From a virus, in the IMG/VR virus record IMGVR_UViG_3300025128_006599, positions 1 to 64,000 of that record: 64,000 nucleotides of DNA; one strand, written 5' to 3'. Every line of letters begins with the position of its first letter. Positions within the stretch are counted from its first letter, which is position 1. The position numbers and the translations under genes are program-made. The notes under the pieces were generated by a model that did no database searches, was not told the origin of the DNA, and saw nothing but the letters and a program-made list of their open reading frames with translations. This document shows positions 5,655-64,000 of this stretch, one piece after another.

Positions 5655-8600
5655 ATGCCAATCACAAAAAGGTTTAATGAACTACAAGGTTTAGCCGATA
5701 TAGATGTATATTTTGAAGAAGAGGGTTTAAATTCTAATTTTTTCAATATCACAGAATTTCCTGATCCATTACAAGTAGGTAAAAATTCATTCCTTATCGC
5801 GGGTTCAGAAAAATTATTAAATTTTACAGAATTACAAATTGATATAGTTGATTCTGCTGGAAACTCTATATATCATGAACCCGTTCGAGAATATCTTGAA
5901 GGTAATATGAGAAGAATCTCAATTGAGGTATACGATACTAATGCACCTGGTAGTGGATTTTTACATATTGTTGGTGAGGCACATACAGAACGAGTTGATG
6001 TTCCAAATGAATGGCACGGTGTCTATAATGTAAGATACTCAAGACCGATTTCAATTAACACTACTCAAGTAAACACTCAACCAATATTTTTTTACAAACA
6101 GCCTAAAATTCGTGCCAGAGAAATAACTAAAGCATTTATAGACGAACTACCAGCATCTGCATCATATTTTATAACAGGTAGTGTAACCGTTACTGCAACC
6201 ACACCAGGTACTCCGATTAATCCAAAAGAATTTGATGATGACTTAGATGATAAAAATCCAGCTGTTACTTTTACAGGAGAGGACAGACCTGGTAAATTTT
6301 TAGATACGTTCAAAAACAAACGAGAAAACAAACGAATAAGTATTAACCAACCTACTGTTTTAGCTTTAGGTCGTGTATCAAGACGTGCTTCTCCAGAAAC
6401 ACCCACACATACAATTACAATACAAGGATTAGAATCTTCTCCAGAGAATGTACAAGATAAATTAACGAGTGCTTTTGTTGGTGGTAAATTAAAGATAGAG
6501 TCACCTCAAGTAGATGAGTCTACATACTTTATTGGTAGTAATTCACGAATAACAGTAGATTCCACCTACGTAACAAGAATTCAAGAAGTATTAAATTCTA
6601 CCACGATAATACCTGAAACACCTTTTGTTGCAGAGGTACACTCATCTCCACAAAGTGACAATAAAACTGGTTTTAAAGATCCAAACTTTACCGATTGGGA
6701 AGTATGGCCAAACCTTCAACCTACTGGTAAAACAATAGAGTCTTTGGAACCGAAAGATGTACAACCTCCACAACCAGATACACCACATATAGATGAAACA
6801 GGAGCGACTTGGTTATGGGGAGAGGTGACAGACCCATCGAGAATACCAAAAGAAGAAGAAGCGGGTGGAAACGCTAATATAAAATATTATGGTTGGAATG
6901 AATCAGGAAGTATAAGTCAGGAAGTAGCAAATTCTACGATTCGTAGAGAAACCGTTAGTATGTTACCAAATAATAATGTTACAATGTCAATTGTACCGAC
7001 ACCTGAGAAAAAATTAACCTCAACTTATCTTAGAAGTTATGCTGATTTCTCGATTATAAATATGAGAACATTTAGTGGTGATATTTTTAGAGTAAAGATA
7101 TATGGAAAGATAAGAGGTGGTTTAACTGATTTTGAATTGTTATATGATTCACCTATAGAATCACCAGAAATTTTAATTGATCCATTTAGTGTTGATGGAT
7201 TTACAAATGTTGGATATTTTTATACTGGTTCTGTTATATCTGATTATTGGGCATCTTCTTCAAATAGTGTCATAAATCAAAATGATGATTATTTAGTTGA
7301 TGGTGTATTGATGAGTGGTTCTAACTACGAAGTAGATGAAGAAGTTGAGTTTTTCACTACAGCATCTTACCAACTCGAACGAAACATTTCTTATGCAGTA
7401 GGGTTTGATTCCTATTATATAAAACAACCAAAGAAAGTTACGGTTACAACGGGTGGTTCCGAATCAACAAAAATAATAGATAGAGCAGAACTAAAGGTAT
7501 TTTTAAGTGGTTCTCGAGCAAAAGACGGAACAGGAGATATAGGTGAAGACATTTATCTTGGAAAGGTTAGTATTCCTGATGGCCCTGCAACAGATGAGGG
7601 TGAACAAAAGGGAGTTTATCAAATTTTCAAAAGTGCTCCTAAACACTTCCCAAGTGCTCAGTTAAAATTTGTTGCAACTGCAGGTCAATGGGTTATAAAA
7701 GATGTTAGTATAAAACCTACTGAGGAAACAAATTTTAGTCCTGATTATTTTAGAACTATAGTTCCACTACCCTTTATGCACAAACGTCCTGCAAAAATGG
7801 ACTTTTTGGTTGAGTTTTATGACGTGGATGGAAAGATTGCGGATTCATTTGGATTTTTAGAAAACTTTAGAATTGTAGGAGCACCACAAGTTATACAAGG
7901 TGATAATAACTTATTGAGTGGTTCTATGTATCTTGGAAACTTACAAGGTCAAGGTATCGAAATACACGGTGGTTCAGCCTATTTACGTTCTATTGGATAT
8001 GAAGGATTTGAAGCTACGATATCAAGTGGTAGTGGTGGATTTATGATATTTAGTGGTTCATTAAGTGGAAGTCGTGCCGATGGAACTCAACTTTTACATA
8101 CAACCGAAAGTTATGAGGGTGTTGGATTAGAGATGGTGGATGCACATGGTTCAGTTGATAGATATTTGAGATTTAGAACTAGTCCAAGTATTTTTGAAGT
8201 TGTAACTGATACATTCTTTTTAGGTAGTTCAACACAATTCCTTAGTGGTAGTAATCAACAGATAGAGATTAGTTCAAGTAATTTCCATTTACAACCCGAT
8301 GGTGATGTGGTGATGCAAGGTACTATTACAGCAGAAGCTGGTGGTACTATTGGTGGATTTACTATCAATTCTGATAATTTGGCTGCAACTGATTTTGTAT
8401 TGAATACAACTGATAAATCTCTTTCTATGGGTAGTGGTAATTCAATATTTCTTGCAGACGCTGATACAGGTATACAATTAGGACATGCAACATTTGCAAG
8501 TGCACCATTTAGTGTAACATCAGAAGGAGCTATTAAAGCAACATCTGGTGAAATAGGTGGATTCGGATTAGGTGGTTCTACTATTAGTAGTTCAAACAAT

Positions 8601-11600
8601 AATTTAATATTAAAAGATAGTGGACAAATCACAGGTTCAGATGTATTATTTACTGGTGGTAGAGTTGCAAATTGGGATATAACAGGTGATACACTTTCAA
8701 GTGTTAACGCTTCCAATAAAGGTATTATACTTGATGCGGATAATTCAACACCAATTATTGAAATTAGAGAAGATGATAATAATCGTGTACAAATATATCA
8801 CACCACTTCTACTAATTGGGGACTTAAAGGAATTTCAAATGGTGATACTATATTCCGATTAGGAGATACAAATCGGATTGCAGGATTTACTTTTACCAAT
8901 AATATTATGTCAAGTAGTAATTTACTTATAAACGCAGATGATGGAGAAATCAGAACTTCTAATTTTGTAACAGGTACAACAGGTTGGAGAATAAGTGCTG
9001 GAACGTTTAGTGGAGTAAATGCAAACGGAACTGCTGAATTTGAAAATGCTAGGATACGAGGTACACTAAGAACTGCTGTATTTGAAAAAGAAACTGTAAA
9101 TGCAGTCGGTGGTCAGTTATGGGTTGCGAACTCTACGGTTTTATCTGGTTCGGCATCTGCAACTGATACTGAATTATTTTGTGATAATGTTAGTGGATTT
9201 GTAAAAGATGAAATTATATTTGCGAAGAAAGTAGATGGTACTGGATTCACTAAAGAATTTATGAAAGTATTTTCACAAAGTCGTAGTGATGTTGATTCTG
9301 ATAATGACTTTTCTGGTATCTTACACGTTACTCGTAGTTTTGGTGGAACGGCTACAGGTTCTGCATTCTCAGTCGTAACCACAATCACAGAACCCATCAC
9401 AACAAAATCTGAAACTGAATTAACAGTTCAAGATGAAAGTCCATCGGGATTAGATTTAGTACACTCAACTATTCGTATCGATAGTGAAATAATGCAAGTT
9501 ACAGGTAGTGTAACAAATAAACTTCAAGTTGTTCGAGGAACGAATGGTACAGCTAAAGCGACACACTCAGATAATTCAAATATAGAGAAAGTGGATCCTG
9601 ATGTTGCATTTTTAATGGGATTGGTTTCACCAGCAGAAGCATATAAAGCAGGACAGGTATTGGTAAGTACTGGTAGATATCTTAGTGGAACGGGAGCTAC
9701 TTCTGCAGGAACTGGTTATATGTTGTTAAATGCAAATCCTGGTGATGCTACAACACCCTATATGGATTTCCATGAAAGAACTGGTAGTGGAATTTATGAT
9801 ACAAAATTAAAAACAAGAATAGGTGATTTGGGCGGCCTTGTTAATACTCGAATAGGTGATGAATTATTTAAAGGAAATAAAACTCCTGGTTTTGGAATGG
9901 TTAGTGAGAATATCTTCCTCAAAGGTGCGATAACTGCAACAAGTGGTTCTATCGGTGGATTAGAAATGACACCTGATAAAATATTTGTAGGTGGAATAGG
10001 AACTTATAATAACTCTGCTACCGCCTTCTTTGTTAGTTCAAGTGGACATTTCAGCTTAAAAGATAAAATCAGTTGGGATGGTAGTAGTACATTAACCATG
10101 AATCCTACTGAATTAAGTATAACCACTACAGGTACTAATAAAATTAAAATTGATTCTACGGGCACACCAAAGATAGCTATGGGTGCAACATTACCAACTG
10201 CATATAATAGTGGAACGGGTTTCTTCGTAGATGGTACAGGTAAATTTTTAGTAGGTAATTCAGGTGGTAATAAACTACAATGGGATGGTAGTTCAGTAAC
10301 GGTTACTGGTACTATCAATATAAGTAATCCAAGTGATATTGATATATCAGATATAAATAACGATAGTGGTTTTACAGATGATTCTACAGCTAATTCTGTA
10401 AATTCTAATTTGGCAGCTCATTCAGCATCTGTGAACGCAAGAACAGGTTCATTAGATACCTTAGAAACACGAGTTGTAATTGATTCTGATGGTATGTCAT
10501 TGAGAGATAGTGGTAATACTGTACTGGCTGATTACGGAACATCAATTCAATTAGGAAGAAATGGACAGGCAAGAACCGAAATTAGCGATACTGCTATTGA
10601 TATGTATGATGGAGCAGTTTCACCAGCAAAACGAGTAAACATTAATAGTAGCGGTGTTGTTACTCTTGGTGGTGATAATGGTGCTACCGATGATGCAATT
10701 GTATTGAGTCCAACTAATGGAGTAACAATTTATGACAGTAACACAAATAAAGCAACTATAACCTCTGATGGACTTAAAATATATGCTGGTCATGCAAGTA
10801 ACACCACTGCAGAGTTTGGTTCGGATGTTTACGTAGGATTACAGGCAAGTGAACACGTAAAAATAACAAATGCATCTATGGAATTTATAGATGGTGGTAC
10901 AACTCATGGTTCTATGACTGCTGGTGTTTGGACAATTGGACAAACTGCAAATAATTTAACAAGATTACAAATGGCAACTGGTTCACTTGATTTTATCCAT
11001 AGAGATGGTAGTGGACAAGATACACATACGTTATCAATGAAACCCGATGGAACGATTCAGGGTACTGATTATTTAATTGAAAAAACAAGATTATTTGGAA
11101 CTGGAGAATTTGGTAGTATATCTATAAGTGGAACAGGTACAGCAACTGCAACAACAGGCCCCAATGGAATAACAGGAGTTGTTAATAGTGGTGGTCTCAC
11201 TACCGATTTAAATGGTGGTCATATTTTTGATAGATTGGGTCTGACTGATATTGATGGTGCTGTTTACCGTGCAAGTAATGGTAGATTTTGGATGATAAAG
11301 GATTGTTATTTTAATGACTTAACACTAATAGGTAATTCAATTTTTTATACAAATGGATTTAGATTATTTGTCAGCGGAACACTAACACTCGGAGACGGAA
11401 CGGGATATGGAGTTATTTACAATCTTGGTGGCACTGGTACGAATGGTGGTGATGCTAGTGGTGGATCAGGTGGTTCTGCTGGTGCGAAAGGCACTGGTGG
11501 AATGGGAGCAGGTAGTGGATATGGTACTTTTGGAAATTATGTTTCAACACCATTTACCGAAGCAAATCATAAACCAACATTAAGAGGTGGTGGTGCTGGT

Positions 11601-11783
11601 GGTAATGGTGGTTTAGGTGGGGCTTCTTCCCTATCGGGTGGCGGCGGAGGCGGCGGAGGCGGTGCAGGTGGCATTAATTTTATCGCAGCTAGAAATATTG
11701 TAATTGGTCACGCTAGTAGTAGAATAGGTGCATGGGGTGGTAATGGTGGTGCTGGTGGTGACGGCGTAGACGGTGGAGGTTAA
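5655..11783 (+). CDS. large virion structural protein (tail fibre/baseplate-associated) with Gly-rich C-terminus
   Basis: 2042 aa, S/G/T-rich; GxIGGF-type tail repeats (GGTIGGFTI, SGEIGGFGL, SGSIGGLEM); polyglycine tracts at the C-terminus. Confidence 0.7.
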   Translation: MPITKRFNELQGLADIDVYFEEEGLNSNFFNITEFPDPLQVGKNSFLIAGSEKLLNFTELQIDIVDSAGNSIYHEPVREYLEGNMRRISIEVYDTNAPGSGFLHIVGEAHTERVDVPNEWHGVYNVRYSRPISINTTQVNTQPIFFYKQPKIRAREITKAFIDELPASASYFITGSVTVTATTPGTPINPKEFDDDLDDKNPAVTFTGEDRPGKFLDTFKNKRENKRISINQPTVLALGRVSRRASPETPTHTITIQGLESSPENVQDKLTSAFVGGKLKIESPQVDESTYFIGSNSRITVDSTYVTRIQEVLNSTTIIPETPFVAEVHSSPQSDNKTGFKDPNFTDWEVWPNLQPTGKTIESLEPKDVQPPQPDTPHIDETGATWLWGEVTDPSRIPKEEEAGGNANIKYYGWNESGSISQEVANSTIRRETVSMLPNNNVTMSIVPTPEKKLTSTYLRSYADFSIINMRTFSGDIFRVKIYGKIRGGLTDFELLYDSPIESPEILIDPFSVDGFTNVGYFYTGSVISDYWASSSNSVINQNDDYLVDGVLMSGSNYEVDEEVEFFTTASYQLERNISYAVGFDSYYIKQPKKVTVTTGGSESTKIIDRAELKVFLSGSRAKDGTGDIGEDIYLGKVSIPDGPATDEGEQKGVYQIFKSAPKHFPSAQLKFVATAGQWVIKDVSIKPTEETNFSPDYFRTIVPLPFMHKRPAKMDFLVEFYDVDGKIADSFGFLENFRIVGAPQVIQGDNNLLSGSMYLGNLQGQGIEIHGGSAYLRSIGYEGFEATISSGSGGFMIFSGSLSGSRADGTQLLHTTESYEGVGLEMVDAHGSVDRYLRFRTSPSIFEVVTDTFFLGSSTQFLSGSNQQIEISSSNFHLQPDGDVVMQGTITAEAGGTIGGFTINSDNLAATDFVLNTTDKSLSMGSGNSIFLADADTGIQLGHATFASAPFSVTSEGAIKATSGEIGGFGLGGSTISSSNNNLILKDSGQITGSDVLFTGGRVANWDITGDTLSSVNASNKGIILDADNSTPIIEIREDDNNRVQIYHTTSTNWGLKGISNGDTIFRLGDTNRIAGFTFTNNIMSSSNLLINADDGEIRTSNFVTGTTGWRISAGTFSGVNANGTAEFENARIRGTLRTAVFEKETVNAVGGQLWVANSTVLSGSASATDTELFCDNVSGFVKDEIIFAKKVDGTGFTKEFMKVFSQSRSDVDSDNDFSGILHVTRSFGGTATGSAFSVVTTITEPITTKSETELTVQDESPSGLDLVHSTIRIDSEIMQVTGSVTNKLQVVRGTNGTAKATHSDNSNIEKVDPDVAFLMGLVSPAEAYKAGQVLVSTGRYLSGTGATSAGTGYMLLNANPGDATTPYMDFHERTGSGIYDTKLKTRIGDLGGLVNTRIGDELFKGNKTPGFGMVSENIFLKGAITATSGSIGGLEMTPDKIFVGGIGTYNNSATAFFVSSSGHFSLKDKISWDGSSTLTMNPTELSITTTGTNKIKIDSTGTPKIAMGATLPTAYNSGTGFFVDGTGKFLVGNSGGNKLQWDGSSVTVTGTINISNPSDIDISDINNDSGFTDDSTANSVNSNLAAHSASVNARTGSLDTLETRVVIDSDGMSLRDSGNTVLADYGTSIQLGRNGQARTEISDTAIDMYDGAVSPAKRVNINSSGVVTLGGDNGATDDAIVLSPTNGVTIYDSNTNKATITSDGLKIYAGHASNTTAEFGSDVYVGLQASEHVKITNASMEFIDGGTTHGSMTAGVWTIGQTANNLTRLQMATGSLDFIHRDGSGQDTHTLSMKPDGTIQGTDYLIEKTRLFGTGEFGSISISGTGTATATTGPNGITGVVNSGGLTTDLNGGHIFDRLGLTDIDGAVYRASNGRFWMIKDCYFNDLTLIGNSIFYTNGFRLFVSGTLTLGDGTGYGVIYNLGGTGTNGGDASGGSGGSAGAKGTGGMGAGSGYGTFGNYVSTPFTEANHKPTLRGGGAGGNGGLGGASSLSGGGGGGGGGAGGINFIAARNIVIGHASSRIGAWGGNGGAGGDGVDGGG

Positions 11784-50497: not shown

Positions 50498-51355
50498 ATG
50501 ATTAAACTAAAAGATTTACTTGAAGCCAGTAAAACTGGTACAACATCCTCATCTGAATCACTTGGTGGGTATAAAGGATTTATAAAACCCGAAGATTTTG
50601 ACGCTTATAAAAAAGATTTAGCAAAAAAACTAAAACTAATATTAGCAGAGGGTGTTAATGATCCTGGTATATTCAAGGCCGTATTTCTTGCAGGTGGGCC
50701 TGGTAGTGGAAAAACCTATGTAGTGAAACAAATCTTTGGAATACCTGATAGATTTAATATCAGTATGAGTGGTATGAAGATGGTTAACTCAGATAAAGAG
50801 TTAAAATATTTGTTAAGAAAATACGGATTCGGTACAGATTTAGATAAGATGCCAGATGAGGTATTTGATGATTTGACTACACCTGGTAAGAGTGGATTAA
50901 GAAAGTTTTCAAAAGAACTTACTAAACAAAGAATGAAACTATATCAACAAGGTAAGTTGGGAATGATTATAGATGGTACAGGCCATGACTTTCGTAAGAT
51001 ACAAACCATGAAAAAAATGTTAGAAGATGATGGATACGACACTTACATGGTATTTGTAAATACATCATTAGAGGTGGCACAAAAAAGAAATCAAGAAAGA
51101 GATAGAATATTACCACCAAACTTATTAGAAAAGAGTTGGAAAGATGTTCAGAAGAATCTTGGAAGTTTCCAAGCATTATTTAATAATAATTTCGTGATAG
51201 TTGATAATTCAAAACATTTATCCGAAGAAGAAGCGGAGGCAAAATTTGTTCCATTGGTTACTAAAGTTATTAGAAAATTTGTGGCAAAACCCATCAAGAA
51301 CAAACTTGGAAAAATGTGGGTTACAAAACAAAAACGTCTTAATAGGAGAAAATAA
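50498..51355 (+). CDS. zeta-toxin/PNK-like P-loop kinase with putative capsid-targeting leader
   Basis: MIKLKDLLE leader; FLAGGPGSGKT, IIDGTG, RNQER. Confidence 0.8.
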   Translation: MIKLKDLLEASKTGTTSSSESLGGYKGFIKPEDFDAYKKDLAKKLKLILAEGVNDPGIFKAVFLAGGPGSGKTYVVKQIFGIPDRFNISMSGMKMVNSDKELKYLLRKYGFGTDLDKMPDEVFDDLTTPGKSGLRKFSKELTKQRMKLYQQGKLGMIIDGTGHDFRKIQTMKKMLEDDGYDTYMVFVNTSLEVAQKRNQERDRILPPNLLEKSWKDVQKNLGSFQALFNNNFVIVDNSKHLSEEEAEAKFVPLVTKVIRKFVAKPIKNKLGKMWVTKQKRLNRRK

Positions 51356-51856: not shown

Positions 51857-52135
51857 ATGGCAACAGCAACAGACGGTTCATTCGTTGGAAGAACACGAGC
51901 TACAGTAAGTAATGATGCTAAATTCACTAAAATAAAAACAACTACGGCAGAAGATTTTTATGCAACAAGTTCATTTATGGGTTCAAGTGGATTTATCATA
52001 CAATCTGCTGGTAATTCTGTAATTACACCTACGGAGGGTGATTCAGTTTCAGCTTCAAATTTGACCGCAAAAACACTATATGAAATAGGTGTACGAAGAG
52101 TAAGTGGTAGCGGTGTAGTTCACGTGGTATTCTAA
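51857..52135 (+). CDS. small S/G-rich putative structural protein
   Basis: 92 aa, beta-rich, AGGAG RBS. Confidence 0.55.
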   Translation: MATATDGSFVGRTRATVSNDAKFTKIKTTTAEDFYATSSFMGSSGFIIQSAGNSVITPTEGDSVSASNLTAKTLYEIGVRRVSGSGVVHVVF

Positions 52136-52139
52136 ACGA

Positions 52140-55100
52140 ATGAATAAATTAACAGAATGGTTAATTAAAGATTTAATTGATGAGGGAGTTGAATTACCAA
52201 TTAAAGTGGGTGATACCGTTTTGATGGGTAGATTCAAAAATAAACGAGTCAAAATAAAATCAATTAATTTTAATGAAAAGGGTGATTTGTTAATCAACAA
52301 TCGTCCTGCCTTAAAATTCAGAGTGGTTAGTTCCCAAACTACAGAGGCTGCTAGAATACCTCGTAAAAAAGGACAACATAGAGGTTCTTCATCTCATTCA
52401 GATTTATACACCGATGAGAATCCAAAGGGTACAATCAAAGGATTAAAGTTTGCAACCGTAAAGGATGCACAGGCCTCTGTATCTAAAATAAAAGGTAGTG
52501 GTAAGAAACACGCTCATAAAATACAGGCGGCGGTTGCTATGGAACAACGAGCAAAAGAAATGGGTAAAAAATCCGCTGCAGCTGTTTATAGAAAATTCAT
52601 CAACCAAATGAAAAAGAAAACCAAAGCAAAGAATGAAGTAGGGTTAGGTTCAACTAAAAAAGTTGTAGGTAGTAATGTTTATACCTTTGGGCCAGATTGG
52701 ATACCAACAAGTTTAGCTCAAAGAAAGAAAATGAAAAGACTACACAATAAATTAAATAAGTCTATACGAGAAGATGTTAATTATTTGGTAAATGAATTTG
52801 ATTGTGGTTGTCAAGAACTCTACGAGATAGAAAAAATTAATGAAAAGTGGAGTGCAAAATACAAAAAAAGTATTAATTGTAACAACCCTAAAGGATTCAG
52901 TCAACGAGCACATTGTCAAGGTAGAAAGAAAAATGAAGAGTTTGGTGCACCAGCAGGTGTAATTCCATCACCAAGTCGTAAGATGGTTAAAAAAATGAAG
53001 AAAAAGGGAAATACTTCAGTTCCTTATGGTAGTGGATATGAAAAGATTGAAGAACGATTTGCAGTCAGAGGTAATAAAGTAGAAAAGTTTATCACTGGTA
53101 AAAATCTTACACATAAAGGTAAGAAATATAAAGAGATAGATTTTGAATTAGTAAAAGTAGATAATCCTAAAAAATTAGTTACACTTAGAATCTTAGCACC
53201 AAAAAAATTATTTGGTCAAGAAGTACCTGTGAGATTCCAAACACTTAGAAGAGGCCCTTTTCTCAAAACCGATACAAGTAAAGTTCGTGAGGGACTACCA
53301 ACTAAAACAACTGATAAATTTAAAAAATTAAAAAATAAACCAGAAACAGATGCTGGAAAGGATTTTTCTGTACATCATGGTTATTCTATGAGTGCTCCTA
53401 TGGGTAGTCTTTCTGAACCAGACACTTATGATTGGGATGATGATGACAGAGAAATCGGTGGAACTCAAAAAGAAAAAGATAAAAGGAAAAAAGGTTACGA
53501 ACCAGTAAAAGAAGACAGAACAAAAATCAAAAAAGTAGTTGGTATTTATGGTGGTAGATTTCAACCATTTGGCCCACATCACAAAAAAACATATGATTGG
53601 TTAAAATCAAGAGTTGATGATGCATATATCACAACATCTGATATCAAGAAACCACCAAGACACCCAATGAACTTCAATGAAAAAGTTCGTCATATGGTCA
53701 AGATGGGTATTCCTAAAAATCGAATTGTGAAAGAAAAATCACCATATATCGCTAAAAACGTATTAAAAAAGTATGATGAGAAAACAACTGCTGTTATTTA
53801 TATTTTTGGTAAAAAAGACGCTGGTAGATTATCAGGTGGAAAGTATTTTAAAGATTATGACAAGAACAGAGGTAACATTTTAGGATATGGTGAACATGGT
53901 TATATTCTCACAGCACCTCACGTATCAATCAAAGTCGGTGGTAAAGAAGTAAGTGGAACTGTAATGAGAGATTTACTCGGTTCACCAGAAAATGAAAAGG
54001 GTAGAGAAAAATTATTCAAGCAGGCATTTGGATACTTTGATAAGGGTATCTATAATATGATGACAAATAAATTTAAAAAATTATACGAATTTTATCAACA
54101 AGATTCTGTAAAAGAAATAATCAAAGAAGTTAGTGCTTTAGGGGCTACGATAACTGCAGGTGATTTAGATGATGAGGGATTGTATGATTTCTTTAATTCA
54201 TTCGCTGATTACAAAAGAGTATCACCAAAACATGCACAAATTTTAGGTTGGGACGTAATAGATGATATTATTGATTTTGAGAATGCAACAGATCCTGGTC
54301 TTGATTATTCAACCTCAACCGTAGATAGAATATCAACCGTAACATATGGTAGAACTATAAATCAAAACACAAAGAATACAGATAGTGTGGATAATCCATT
54401 TCCTAAATATAAACAACATATGAATCAAATGATTGATAAACTTGGTTGGGAAATCGTAAAATTCTTTGGTGAAAAGGAAATAAAGGCAAAGAAAATTAAA
54501 GATTCTGATACACACGATATGGGAACTGCAACTGCAGGTAGTGGTAATACAAATAAACCAGCAACTCCAGATAAACTTAAAAAGATACAAGAGAATTTTC
54601 AAAGAGATGTGGGGTTACTGATTGAGGGTGGTGCTTATGGACATATGTCACATCCATTTGATGATAATAATCTGACGTTTTCAGATTTGAAACAGATAAT
54701 TATTAATGGTATAGGTGGAAAGTTAGACAGAGAAGATGGGGTTACAGAGAAACTCGATGGACAAAATCTAATGGTAAGTTGGGTTGATGGTAAATTAAAG
54801 GCAGCTAGAAACAAAGGTCATCTCAAAAATCGTGGTAAAACAGCTCCAACCACAAGTGGAGTAAAGAGTATGTTTAGTGGTAGAGGTGATATACAAAAGG
54901 CCTTTGTAGGTGCGATGAAAGATTTAGAAAAGGCAATTGGTAAATTATCAGATAAACAAAAAGAAAAAGTATTTGGTAATGGAACCAAGTGGATGAATTT
55001 AGAGGTTATGTATCCAGCAACAGCAAATGTAGTAGATTATGATGTGGCAGAAATAGTGTTTCACGGCACGATAGAATATGATGATAGTGGAAGGGCAGTA

Positions 55101-55853
55101 GGTCAACCTAAAGATAGTGCTCGTATGTTAGCTGGTATGATAAAACAAGTAAACCAAAGCGTTCAAAAAATGTTTAGGATTGGAAAACCAAACTTTTTAC
55201 AAGTTCCCAAATCTCAAAACTTTGGTAAATTAAAAGGTAAATTTTTACAACAAATAAATAAATTACAATCTACATATTCATTAAAAGATACAGATAAGTT
55301 GGGTGAATATCATCAGGCATATTGGAGAGAGTATGTATTTAATGCATCTAAACAATTTAAAGTTAGTTTGAAACCAAATCAATTTGTTAGTTTGGTTAAT
55401 CGTTGGGCATATTTTGATAAGTCATATAAGATAGCGGATATTAAAAAAGATTATAAAGATAGTCCAAAATTTTTAGATTGGATATTATCTACAGATAAGA
55501 ATGATGTTCAAAAGATTTTTAAAGATAATATAAAACCATTTGAAGTTTTATTCTTTTCAGTTGGTGCTGAAATATTGAAAAATATAAGTGGGTATATGGC
55601 AGCCTCACCAAATAAAACGGTACAAAAAATGAGAAAAGAAGTCATTCAGGCATTAAGGGATTTGAAAAGTGGTGGTAAGGTTGATAAATTAAAAAAGTTA
55701 AAAATACAAATTGAAAAATTAGAAGCAATTGGTGGATTAGATGCAATTGTTCCAAGTGAGGGAGTGGTGTTTAAGTATAAGGGTAAGACTTATAAGTTTA
55801 CAGGAGCATTTGCACCAATCAATCAGATACTTGGTAGTTTGAAATTTGGATAG
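52140..55853 (+). CDS. modular polyprotein: short basic modules + HIGH-type nucleotidyltransferase + ATP-dependent ligase-like domain
   Basis: YGGRFQPFGPHH...VSGT (53514-54089); TEKLDG, NLEV, FHG, SEGVVF, YKFTG (54627-55853); modules bounded by xxE sites. Confidence 0.8.
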   Translation: MNKLTEWLIKDLIDEGVELPIKVGDTVLMGRFKNKRVKIKSINFNEKGDLLINNRPALKFRVVSSQTTEAARIPRKKGQHRGSSSHSDLYTDENPKGTIKGLKFATVKDAQASVSKIKGSGKKHAHKIQAAVAMEQRAKEMGKKSAAAVYRKFINQMKKKTKAKNEVGLGSTKKVVGSNVYTFGPDWIPTSLAQRKKMKRLHNKLNKSIREDVNYLVNEFDCGCQELYEIEKINEKWSAKYKKSINCNNPKGFSQRAHCQGRKKNEEFGAPAGVIPSPSRKMVKKMKKKGNTSVPYGSGYEKIEERFAVRGNKVEKFITGKNLTHKGKKYKEIDFELVKVDNPKKLVTLRILAPKKLFGQEVPVRFQTLRRGPFLKTDTSKVREGLPTKTTDKFKKLKNKPETDAGKDFSVHHGYSMSAPMGSLSEPDTYDWDDDDREIGGTQKEKDKRKKGYEPVKEDRTKIKKVVGIYGGRFQPFGPHHKKTYDWLKSRVDDAYITTSDIKKPPRHPMNFNEKVRHMVKMGIPKNRIVKEKSPYIAKNVLKKYDEKTTAVIYIFGKKDAGRLSGGKYFKDYDKNRGNILGYGEHGYILTAPHVSIKVGGKEVSGTVMRDLLGSPENEKGREKLFKQAFGYFDKGIYNMMTNKFKKLYEFYQQDSVKEIIKEVSALGATITAGDLDDEGLYDFFNSFADYKRVSPKHAQILGWDVIDDIIDFENATDPGLDYSTSTVDRISTVTYGRTINQNTKNTDSVDNPFPKYKQHMNQMIDKLGWEIVKFFGEKEIKAKKIKDSDTHDMGTATAGSGNTNKPATPDKLKKIQENFQRDVGLLIEGGAYGHMSHPFDDNNLTFSDLKQIIINGIGGKLDREDGVTEKLDGQNLMVSWVDGKLKAARNKGHLKNRGKTAPTTSGVKSMFSGRGDIQKAFVGAMKDLEKAIGKLSDKQKEKVFGNGTKWMNLEVMYPATANVVDYDVAEIVFHGTIEYDDSGRAVGQPKDSARMLAGMIKQVNQSVQKMFRIGKPNFLQVPKSQNFGKLKGKFLQQINKLQSTYSLKDTDKLGEYHQAYWREYVFNASKQFKVSLKPNQFVSLVNRWAYFDKSYKIADIKKDYKDSPKFLDWILSTDKNDVQKIFKDNIKPFEVLFFSVGAEILKNISGYMAASPNKTVQKMRKEVIQALRDLKSGGKVDKLKKLKIQIEKLEAIGGLDAIVPSEGVVFKYKGKTYKFTGAFAPINQILGSLKFG
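53027..53047 (+). repeat. 21-nt direct repeat, copy 1 (TGGTAGTGGATATGAAAAGAT)
   Basis: Identical to 63257-63277; encodes GSGYEKI. Confidence 0.8.
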
Positions 55854-62221: not shown

Positions 62222-63100
62222 ATGTCCTATAATAAAAAGCATAACAAAATAAAGAATACGGGTATTCTTTTTGAATTACTTACTCGACAAATCACCGTAG
62301 ATGTGTTGAACAACGAAAAAGATAGTTCTTCTATAAAAATTTTAAAAGAATTTTTCAATGCAAATACAGAATTGGGTAAGGAAAATGAACTTTATAAGAT
62401 TTTAACAGAAAAGAAATATAAAAGTGCTAAACACTCAGAGATATTGATTGAAGCTGTCATTAAAAATCGTAGAAAATTATCAAATCGTAGACTAAGAAAC
62501 GAAAAATATAATTTAATCAAAGAAATTAAACGTAGTTACGATACAAAAGATTTTTTCAATACTAAATTACCAAACTATAAAGTCTTGGCATCAATTTATA
62601 ATATATTTGAAGGTGAATCTGCACGTGAAAGTTACGGGCCAGTAATTGAGACCGATAGTAAAGTAGTTGTAATGGAAAATATCACAAATCAATCGTCAAA
62701 CAAGTCAAAAAATCTATCAGAAAAGTCTTACAAATCGTACGAAACACAAGAGGAAGACATTAGACTTTTGACATATCAACTATTAGTTGATAAATTCAAT
62801 AAAAAATATAGTAATCTAAGTGAATCACAAAGAAATTTGTTAAGAGAATACATTAACAATTTATCAAACACTAATTCTTTGAGAGAATTCATAGATGCTG
62901 AAGTTATTAAAATTAGAAAAGTTTTATCACAACACTTAAATAGAGTGGATGATAAAATAACGAAAATTAAACTGACCGAAGCAATTGCTCATACAGATAA
63001 TGCTACGAGTGGGAAACGTGTAAAAGATTCTCACGTTGTATCTTTAATGAGATATTATGAATTAGTGAAGGAATTAGAAAATGTCCACGAAAATAAGTAA
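62222..63100 (+). CDS. putative prohead core/scaffold-associated protein
   Basis: Helical, lies between portal and prohead protease; KHNKIKNTGILFELL start; GGAG RBS supports ATG 62222. Confidence 0.55.
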   Translation: MSYNKKHNKIKNTGILFELLTRQITVDVLNNEKDSSSIKILKEFFNANTELGKENELYKILTEKKYKSAKHSEILIEAVIKNRRKLSNRRLRNEKYNLIKEIKRSYDTKDFFNTKLPNYKVLASIYNIFEGESARESYGPVIETDSKVVVMENITNQSSNKSKNLSEKSYKSYETQEEDIRLLTYQLLVDKFNKKYSNLSESQRNLLREYINNLSNTNSLREFIDAEVIKIRKVLSQHLNRVDDKITKIKLTEAIAHTDNATSGKRVKDSHVVSLMRYYELVKELENVHENK

Positions 63101-63734
63101 AAAAACATTTAAAGAGTTATTACGAAAACTCATCCAGCGTGAAATAGAGGAAGCATCAACCACTGCTAATGTACCTGGATACGATACACCGAGGGCATTT
63201 GCAGGTAAGGGTACTAAGATGGGTGTACCATTGGATAGAAGAGATTCTATTGCAAGTGGTAGTGGATATGAAAAGATAGATGAGGCAGATGATCACGAAG
63301 GAAAGATGGCAAAGGCTCAGTTAGAAAGAAGTATGGAATATGCTGGGATGATTTACAAAATGATTGGTAATGTTGACACCGATGGTGATGGTGAAGTTAA
63401 TTTTCCATCATGGGTACAATCATATTTGACAAAATCTCAAGATTATTTACAAAGTGTATATAATTACTTAGATGGTAAAGATGGATTAGATGATAAATTT
63501 CAAAAAGAAGAATCAGTAAATGAAGATGCTAAAGACGTAACTAAAGCAAAAAAAATTACACGTGATTTAGAAAAAATTGAAGGTAAATATCGTAAATCTA
63601 TGTATGATTTATCCGATAGATTACAGGCAGATCCTAAAAATCACAAGTTACAAGATGAATTAGTAAGATCATATACAAAGAATGTAACATCTTTCATGAG
63701 AGATATGATTAAAATAACTAAAAGGATGAAATAA
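63081..63734 (+). CDS. modular putative internal head protein
   Basis: Segments bounded by EIEE, KIDE and SVNE; includes DHEGKMAKAQL...PSWVQS module. Confidence 0.55.
   Translation: MSTKISKKTFKELLRKLIQREIEEASTTANVPGYDTPRAFAGKGTKMGVPLDRRDSIASGSGYEKIDEADDHEGKMAKAQLERSMEYAGMIYKMIGNVDTDGDGEVNFPSWVQSYLTKSQDYLQSVYNYLDGKDGLDDKFQKEESVNEDAKDVTKAKKITRDLEKIEGKYRKSMYDLSDRLQADPKNHKLQDELVRSYTKNVTSFMRDMIKITKRMK
63257..63277 (+). repeat. 21-nt direct repeat, copy 2
   Basis: Identical to 53027-53047. Confidence 0.8.
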
Positions 63735-64000
63735 TGAAAGAGCTTATAGTCGATTATATTCCATTTGAAGTATCACCACAACAAATAACCGAGGCCATGA
63801 AAGAAAACAATGGTAAGTTAGTTGTTAAGGGTGTATTACAAAGAGCAGATGCGAAGAATCAAAATGGAAGAGTATATCCAATGGAGATTCTACAAAGAGA
63901 AGCAAAGAATTATGATGAGGGATTCATCAAACAATCCCGTGCTATGGGTGAACTTGACCATCCAGATTCATCAGTTGTGAATTTACAAAATGTATCACAT
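63734..64000 (+). CDS. prohead protease (T4 gp21-like), truncated by the window end; not in ORF track
   Basis: KGVLQRADAKNQNGRVYP...RAMGELDHP...NLQNVSH. Confidence 0.92.
   Translation, partial: MKELIVDYIPFEVSPQQITEAMKENNGKLVVKGVLQRADAKNQNGRVYPMEILQREAKNYDEGFIKQSRAMGELDHPDSSVVNLQNVSH

Follow-up and report, generated by a model that had tools for sequence, protein, structure and literature searches.

Glutamate-ended, shuffled modules in a head-cluster gene of a metagenomic phage: a candidate capsid-cargo polyprotein

IPI, IPII and IPIII, which are internal proteins of phage T4, and its Alt protein, carry a capsid targeting sequence and are processed by gp21 (PMC9026906, PMC3012670). The targeting sequence is 10 residues long, brings internal and even foreign proteins into the core of the prohead, and is taken off by gp21 in a step that residues 8 and 10 control (PMC9026906). 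The propeptides of this type of cargo are ~10-19 residues long and end in L/I-x-E (PMC9026906). Each such cargo has a gene and a leader of its own and is trimmed only of terminal propeptides. Multiple cuts after Glu in one chain by a prohead protease are known from T4 gp22 and gp67 and from head proteins of phiKZ and SPN3US, where the extra fragments are propeptide or scaffold debris (PMC10052503, PMC9026906). A third point of reference is the class of polyvalent proteins (Iyer et al. 2017, PMC5512222), which join 2-15 unrelated domains in a polypeptide, are mosaic, occur in a late or virion context, are proposed to be delivered with the DNA, and are likened to RNA-virus polyproteins; processing is proposed there to be carried out by an embedded zincin-like (MPTase) or other peptidase, and MuF, DarA-N and DdrB-ParB are among the signature domains. 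Here we describe a gene at positions 52140-55853 (+ strand) of IMG/VR virus record IMGVR_UViG_3300025128_006599 that shares features with all three, and whose product is probably loaded into the phage head and cut at most of the joints between its modules.

The window that we analyzed is the whole stretch from position 1 to 64,000 of this record, the first 64 kb of a 76.5-kb viral contig with a G+C content of ~30%; the parts of the chain, the kinase gene, the ORF at 63081 and the protease gene all lie on the + strand. The open reading frame (ORF) at 52140-55853, stop codon included, gives a stop-free translation of 1237 residues that is Lys-rich (15%; protein P0001). The original prediction, made by eye from the sequence, read it as a string of modules with Glu-ending boundaries, packaged as one chain and cut into small effectors by a gp21-type protease. 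All 14 of the sites that it listed are where it placed them, and at least 10 of them (after residues 15, 69, 166, 219, 235, 267, 305, 384, 458 and 829) are recurrent breakpoints in BLAST and HMMER comparisons with 270 relatives. The ORF and its module boundaries are real.

The chain opens with a leader of 15 residues (MNKLTEWLIKDLIDE; 52140-52184) that is conserved across the family, is predicted by AlphaFold2 (AF2) to form a single helix, and resembles the capsid-targeting propeptide of T4. Seven modules follow. M1 (residues 16-69; 52185-52346) is a small beta domain, weakly KOW/SH3-like, with an isoelectric point (pI) of 10.4 and the end TTE; M2 (70-166; 52347-52637) is a very widespread, helical, basic module of pI 10.5 that ends in KNE. 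M3 (167-235; 52638-52844) has few homologues, ends in INE and is possibly composite: IRE211, VNE219 and LYE229 lie within it, and behind each of its internal boundaries at 209/219 stand ~10 ends of high-scoring segment pairs (HSPs). M4 (236-267; 52845-52940) carries the motif WSxKYKKSIxCxNPKGFSQxAHC, found in small cyanophage proteins, and ends in KKNEE. M5 (268-305; 52941-53054) is a basic piece, apparently disordered, with the end SGYEKIEE, M6 (306-384; 53055-53291) a beta-sheet domain of pI 10.6 ending in KVRE, and M7 (385-458; 53292-53513) a piece of mixed charge that also looks disordered and ends in PVKE. The C-terminal core comprises a putative HIGH-type nucleotidyltransferase domain (459-650; 53514-54089; end KKLYE), an acidic middle region with a low-confidence fold (651-829; 54090-54626; bounded by IKE663 and LIE829), and a ligase-like domain, a candidate covalent nucleotidyltransferase with a KxDG motif at K871 (830-1237; 54627-55850; start GGAYGHMSHPFDD).

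Boundaries projected from hidden Markov models were off by 1-3 residues, and we used registers fixed by short conserved anchor motifs in their place, counting each distinct flanking context once. Glu occupied the fixed register in 58-84% of unique boundary contexts, compared to a background of 5.7%. It stood before M2 in 90 of 134 contexts, before M4 (anchor WSxKYKKSI) in 37 of 44 and before the core in 29 of 50, and it closed M2 in 82 of 119 and M6 in 17 of 27. At the end of the leader (Glu in 44/54) the residue two positions earlier, P3, was L, I, F, V or M in 85%, and at the end of M5 (52/62) it was V or I in 89%; M7 ended in V-x-E in all six contexts. The joint before the ligase-like domain (GGAYGHM) had L or I at P3 in 74 of 74 contexts, with Glu at P1 in 59 of them and Met in 15. 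The nucleotidyltransferase domain kept its K-L-x-E end irrespective of what comes next. When the sequences upstream of M2 were grouped into 68 clusters of unrelated contexts, Glu was found at P1 in 52 clusters and one residue earlier in 13 more, which have an S/K-NPR start variant of the module; of the 52 whose P1 is Glu itself, 39 have V, L, M or I at P3. The all-against-all breakpoint profile, which is unbiased, had its peak at Glu as well (21% at the last aligned residue), although this profile is noisy because Lys-rich tails extend the HSPs. The anticipated enrichment at homology breakpoints was thus borne out, with Glu, usually preceded by a hydrophobic P3, concentrated there. The (I/L/V)xE rule from which the prediction started fared less well: Glu holds at the joints, but TTE69, KNE166 and NEE267 do not fit it, and the enrichment of [ILV]xE within this one protein is modest (19 occurrences vs. 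11.9 +/- 3.0 in shuffles, P=0.018). The joint motif is better written as [V/L/I/M/K]-x-E.

The modules are shuffled among relatives. A search of 5.8 billion proteins returned >2000 relatives of the C-terminal 774 residues (clusters at 90% identity), with total lengths of 722-1355 residues. They share the core, consisting of the NMNAT-like nucleotidyltransferase (NT), the poorly modelled middle region (MID) and the ligase-like domain (LIG), together with a ~15-residue leader ending in [L/I/F]-x-E, and what lies between leader and core is highly variable; in some members it includes a CCA-adding/poly(A) polymerase or an AAA_33/Zeta kinase (KIN). Annotation with a module library gave 107 architectures among 205 family members, from leader-NT-LIG, which lacks the middle region, and leader-NT-MID-LIG up to the ten-module chain of this phage. 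In minimal members the leader is fused straight to the core. Reordered forms include M2-M1-KIN-M6-M5-NT-MID-LIG, the in-chain kinase form M1-KIN-NT-MID-LIG, and one relative in which M7 stands behind the nucleotidyltransferase and not ahead of it. A fixed multidomain fold in constant order, which the prediction had named as the outcome that would count against it, is therefore ruled out by the number of architectures and by the reordered modules.

The separate histories of the pieces were also visible in searches with parts of the chain. With phmmer, residues 1-463 gave 3679 hits among 1.84 billion representatives (clusters at 50% identity), mostly to M2, which occurs at any position in proteins of 101-2306 residues, always with identical edges; in the ESM Atlas, M2 matched unnamed viral clusters. 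A MAFFT alignment of small module-bearing proteins was usable for M2 only, because the module order is permuted. In tblastn searches of phage genomes the chain split: residues 464-1236 matched a 639-residue 'cytidylyltransferase-like' protein of Microcystis phage Mel-JY01 and an uncultured jumbo phage, residues 826-1236 alone matched a different jumbo phage, and residues 72-159 and 205-267 matched proteins of T4-like cyanophages and pelagiphages that are small or have another build. The M4 motif was present in small cyanophage proteins, for example at the C-terminus of SSM2_108 of Synechococcus phage S-SM2. Sharp breakpoints formed by HSP ends fell at 66-72, 166, 209/219, 262-267, 305-310, 381 and 452-462.

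The original prediction suggested searching for the modules as free-standing proteins or reshuffled with xxE flanks, and both forms were found. Free-standing M2 genes begin with Met-(A/S)-x-R-x-P-R-K-K (for example, Met followed by AKRKPRKKGQ), and others place a leader of 9-10 residues (MKLSEFFDE, MKLNEVLDE, MKTFRQFVE) directly before the identical first residue. The ligase-like domain exists as a complete 407-residue gene beginning Met-G-A-A-Y-G-H-M, and 18 proteins start exactly at the GGAYGHM joint. The kinase is free-standing in this contig and in relatives is an in-chain module of the polyprotein behind a leader ending in ILQE. The mature N-termini would be the same whether the initiator Met is removed from a stand-alone product or a chain is cut after Glu.

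The contig encodes a candidate protease for such a cut. The gene at 63734, as had been predicted, belongs to the gp21 type: its product matches Pfam Peptidase_S77 (PF03420; 8e-26) and PHROG 207, head maturation protease (4.5e-20). It occupies 63734-64000 in the window and runs on to contig position 64354. In T4 the known cut of gp23 removes a 65-residue propeptide (PMC9026906), and LIDE64-A65 of the Gp23-family capsid protein of this contig aligns with LTE65-A66 of Tequatrovirus gp23; since the site lies at the known gp23 cut position, the T4 cutting rule very likely holds in this phage, and its S77 protease is predicted to be specific for Glu. The last residues of the polyprotein leader, LIDE, are the P4-P1 residues of this capsid site. 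The start M-(I/A)-K-L-(K/N)-x-h-h-x-E recurs in five more ORFs, all within the head and packaging region at 50-68 kb. A scan with the strict leader pattern found just the four at 65.5-67 kb and none on ORFs of 0-50 kb; the fifth leader, on the kinase ORF at 50498, was spotted by eye.

The reading that we favor combines these elements. The amphipathic N-terminal leader, of the T4 capsid-targeting type, would bring the chain into the prohead scaffolding core, where the S77 (gp21-family) protease would strip the leader and cut the chain after Glu at the [V/L/I/M/K]-x-E joints. About ten pieces would be released: small modules of 4-11 kDa, mostly with a predicted pI of ~10, the NMNAT-like nucleotidyltransferase (22 kDa), the acidic middle region (17 kDa) and the ligase-like enzyme (46 kDa). 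After release they would remain associated with the DNA and would probably reach the host together with it. A cut site in every module would let recombination add, remove or reorder modules and leave the others unharmed. We consider loading into the head and cutting at most joints probable; that the pieces are ejected and act in the host is an idea to which we give somewhat less than an even chance.

Several observations weigh against this reading. The Glu counts at module ends are not independent events, because the Glu belongs to each module's own conserved tail, and only the test upstream of M2 uses unrelated sequences. The P1 residue before the ligase-like domain is Met in 15/74 contexts (~20% of relatives), so that not every joint need be cut in every phage. 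K, T and N at P3 of KNE166, TTE69 and NEE267 are unlike the classical L/I of T4. The motif [ILV]xE also occurs inside folded domains, as at VTE870 within the KxDG motif, and thus does not by itself predict cutting. The leader is 15 residues long with Lys at position 10 and is not a 10-mer. SSM2_109 of S-SM2 has such joints but no leader. Finally, gp40 of Pelagibacter phage HTVC033P (L086:2989-3279) is a free-standing 96-residue M2 homologue with neither leader nor Glu flanks, and no Peptidase_S77 was detected in this 53-kb podophage, indicating that M2 is an autonomous unit and not intrinsically a capsid protein.

The chain might also be cut to a different end. The N-terminal 450 residues could be a long propeptide or scaffold-like spacer, cut several times, whose fragments are expelled, leaving no cargo beyond the enzymes, if any, and no effector role for the small modules. 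In giant phages, the long propeptides of head proteins receive several cuts and are for the most part lost from the head (PMC10052503), those of SPN3US being 111-254 residues in length, and the T4 core proteins gp22 and gp67 are cut into fragments that exit the head (PMC9026906). M5 and M7 look disordered in the AF2 model of residues 1-463, as a spacer might. The mean predicted local distance difference test (pLDDT) score of this model is 60, and values fall below 50 at 14-16 (directly after the leader helix at 2-14), 64-72, 168-187, 220-233, 262-304 and 379-463. The proposed cuts at 15, 69, 166, 235, 267, 305, 384 and 458 lie within or next to these stretches, which agrees with the favored reading, and the remainder of the model resembles folded beads on a string, with a small beta domain (M1), a helical module (M2, ~90), a helix (M3) and a beta sheet (M6, ~82, with ~80-85 over 317-376). 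Thousands of proteins contain M1, M2 or M6, which are folded (pLDDT 75-90) and well conserved. Modules are also found as free-standing, leader-bearing genes and as the stand-alone podophage gene, which would be unexpected of disposable spacers, and their pI of ~10 resembles that of the T4 internal proteins that are retained. We therefore regard a discarded spacer as unlikely.

Alternatively, the product might be an uncut multidomain 'polyvalent' protein, its Glu joints being footprints of recombination at short shared sequences (KKNE, KESVNE) or a linker preference. Some polyvalent phage proteins are delivered uncut, the N4 virion RNA polymerase being one example (PMC5512222), and short identical nucleotide strings do occur at module ends: KESVNE is repeated, and the M5 tail recurs in the ORF at 63081, with 21 identical nucleotides common to 53027-53047 and 63257-63277. 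Joint Glu residues are encoded by both GAA and GAG, however, and P2 and P4 vary freely, indicating that the residue is conserved and not a nucleotide string; conserved repeats at the nucleotide level are thereby ruled out as the only explanation of the joints. As the protease rule would have it, P3 is hydrophobic in ~80% of the independent contexts; P1' is the exact starting point of free-standing genes, and leader ends and the capsid-protein cut site bear the same motif. On this evidence an uncut chain appears decidedly unlikely. A further nucleotide similarity concerns the core: 52653-52667 and 53529-53543 are identical at 13 of 15 positions, so that the sequence after M2 (...TKKVVGS...) echoes the start of the core (...IKKVVGIYGG), and may be the scar of an older direct joint between M2 and the core.

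The place of the gene bears on whether its product is packaged at all. It sits in a head and packaging cluster in which the P-loop kinase gene (50498) and a 92-residue ORF precede it, and a LamG-domain protein, a TerS-like ORF, TerL (58738) and the portal gene (60328) follow; after the portal come two conserved ORFs, the Peptidase_S77 protease gene (63734), several small ORFs, an acidic scaffold-like protein and the Gp23-family capsid protein. The order [kinase]-polyprotein-TerS-like-TerL-portal-...-S77 protease was invariant in all 80 related IMG/VR loci; the S77 protease was present in 26/26 of the loci having at least 9 kb downstream, TerL in 53/53 and the portal in 46/46. The gene adjoins the terminase genes and does not lie between the genes for the protease and the capsid protein, and its enzyme domains need not act inside a capsid, so the product could be a late cytoplasmic protein that is not packaged (e.g., one for RNA or nucleotide repair during assembly), its leader helix serving another interaction and any cutting being incidental. 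However, the leader shows conservation and has the protease motif at its end, and leaders of the same class are carried by small ORFs between the protease and the capsid protein; a cytoplasmic role also leaves the strict linkage to the S77 head module and the joint pattern unexplained, and we consider it very improbable. An artefact of chimeric assembly or of frameshift-fused ORFs, conceivable for a metagenomic record that is 42% complete, was rejected as having next to no likelihood, since the exact 1237-residue protein is present on four contigs and in 80 related loci, from close and distant relatives, the gene stays one long ORF of variable content whose stop-bounded start is at the leader.

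The nucleotidyltransferase domain scored 18 bits against Pfam PF01467, below the cut-off of 21, with relatives at 21.1-24.4 bits. Foldseek matched residues 459-650 to FAD synthetase and NMNAT/NadM (E ~2e-3; 1.8e-3), and VIA gave Z 8.1 to NadM and Z 7-7.6 to PPAT/NadD; the region of the (H/T)xGH motif reads GRFQPFGPHH, a partial fit by eye. The last domain is called ligase-like only, as no sequence profile supports a ligase. Its motif I reads EKLDGQN, with K871 at least 90% conserved and the D, G, Q and N invariant in 40 sequences; the C-terminal EGVVFK...K is nearly invariant, and the candidate motifs NLEVMYP, VFHG, EGVVFK and KxK are conserved. Residues 867-1019 gave weak VIA matches (Z 6.0-6.8 over 104-117 residues) to the fungal Trl1 ligase, Naegleria RNA ligase (NgrRnl) and African swine fever virus ligase; such rows (Z 6-7), which came from the wide search only, are in a range that can be chance. 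Foldseek found no ligase at E<=0.001 for the core model (mean pLDDT 63, with low confidence in the C-terminal 40 residues of the ligase-like domain), and for the core neither sequence nor profile searches of the PDB had a significant result. PHROGs had no hit for the whole polyprotein and Pfam just the sub-threshold PF01467; for the N-terminal model and M1, Foldseek gave only weak matches (E 0.06 and above) to generic Spt5/NusG KOW and SH3/Tudor barrels.

The kinase gene next to the polyprotein (50498-51355) begins with a leader of its own, MIKLKDLLE, and contains LILAE followed by GVNDPGIFK as a second joint; its product matches AAA_33 and Zeta_toxin and has a weak polynucleotide kinase PHROG hit. 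A ligase-like nucleotidyltransferase with a P-loop kinase adjacent or in-chain recalls the tRNA healing-and-sealing enzymes T4 Pnkp plus Rnl1 and fungal Trl1 (ligase-kinase-cyclic phosphodiesterase), to whose ligase domain the weak fold match (Z 6.3-6.8) points. Unlike those systems, this one has no sequence-level ligase-family match, its motifs IV and V come after a long helical insert, and no phosphatase or cyclic phosphodiesterase was found. Taken together, the nucleotidyltransferase, ligase-like domain, kinase and the CCA-adding modules of relatives may point to nucleic-acid end repair.

Other genes in the surroundings share some of these features. Between the portal and protease genes lies a 217-residue ORF of conserved synteny (63081-63734) with an M5-type tail, SGSGYEKIDE. 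A 393-residue ORF directly after the protease gene (contig 64356-65537) has a DUF3008 N-terminal end (Pfam 6.9e-8) and the joint K-E-S-V-N-E twice, and from its sequence looks like another string-of-modules head protein. In S-SM2, SSM2_108 and SSM2_109 (L001:3689-6240), between g16 and g17, are Glu-jointed mosaics that include M4, M2, DUF192 and DUF6321; SSM2_108 starts with MKTLKQFLKE. The 92-residue ORF (51857-52135) is conserved and shifts position, lying upstream of the polyprotein gene here and between the TerS-like ORF and TerL elsewhere. Positions 1-50000 of the window hold a long run of same-strand genes, including a 2042-residue ORF (5655-11783) and many ORFs of sugar-metabolism size. 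The nearest isolates by portal are Mel-JY01 (56%) and Flavobacterium phages (50%).

The chain can now be set against the described systems. As in the T4 internal proteins and Alt, a short N-terminal propeptide ends in hydrophobic-x-Glu, an S77/gp21-family protease is encoded in the head cluster, small basic proteins and an enzyme are the proposed head cargo, and diverse cargo shares the leader alone (here as read from sequence). In contrast to those separately encoded cargoes, up to ~10 modules stand behind one leader, with cut-site motifs inside the chain and shuffling between phages at those motifs. With gp22, gp67 and the phiKZ and SPN3US head proteins the chain would share multiple cuts after Glu, but the products here would be conserved, independently occurring modules and enzymes. 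Multiple prohead-protease cuts are known for scaffold and propeptide regions (PMC10052503), but are not known as a means of releasing independent, shuffled modules. The likeness to polyvalent proteins extends to the ~10 unrelated domains in one polypeptide, late or virion context, mosaicism and proposed delivery with the DNA. Here, however, the chain would be processed in trans: the prohead protease would act on a three-residue motif that recurs along it. Pfam and PHROGs revealed no embedded peptidase or polyvalent-protein signature domain in the polyprotein or in six long relatives, and a cryptic peptidase could conceivably still lie in the middle region or M3, neither of which has an assigned fold. 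A text search of the polyvalent-protein survey (PMC5512222) did not return this family or its modules. The comparison with an RNA-virus polyprotein drawn in the original prediction fails for the protease: RNA viruses encode it within the chain, and here the one protease that was found has its own gene, 7.9 kb downstream. Literature searches on phage polyproteins cut by a prohead protease, cyanophage internal proteins and Mel-JY01 returned no description of this arrangement, and T4-GC119 is named there but described as no more than a hypothetical protein.

If the joints are cut, this DNA phage would have a true polyprotein strategy, processed in trans by the head-maturation protease, which would explain how T4-type phages diversify the contents of their capsids: one leader, many interchangeable modules. 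We tentatively propose, as an extension that we hold possible but short of probable, that the joints form a plug-and-play cargo system widespread in aquatic T4-type phages, in which the protease site would be both the boundary of the recombination unit and the release signal, and that this lineage pre-loads end-repair enzymes (ligase-like, kinase, CCA-adding and NMNAT-like) and DNA-binding basic proteins that would act at injection, for example against defences that target tRNA or nicotinamide adenine dinucleotide (NAD). Any module flanked on both sides by [V/L/I/M]-x-E joints, with the one leader ahead of it, would then automatically be loaded, freed and delivered. Cutting at the joints would also supply a rule by which mature virion proteins could be predicted from sequence, would make capsid-delivered repair enzymes a possible counter-defence, and would provide a natural model for packing several foreign proteins into the heads of T4-type phages. 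The family is abundant, and a shared interpretation would become available for many 'hypothetical' proteins of marine phages, among them the product of the gene that T4-like cyanophages carry between g16 and g17.

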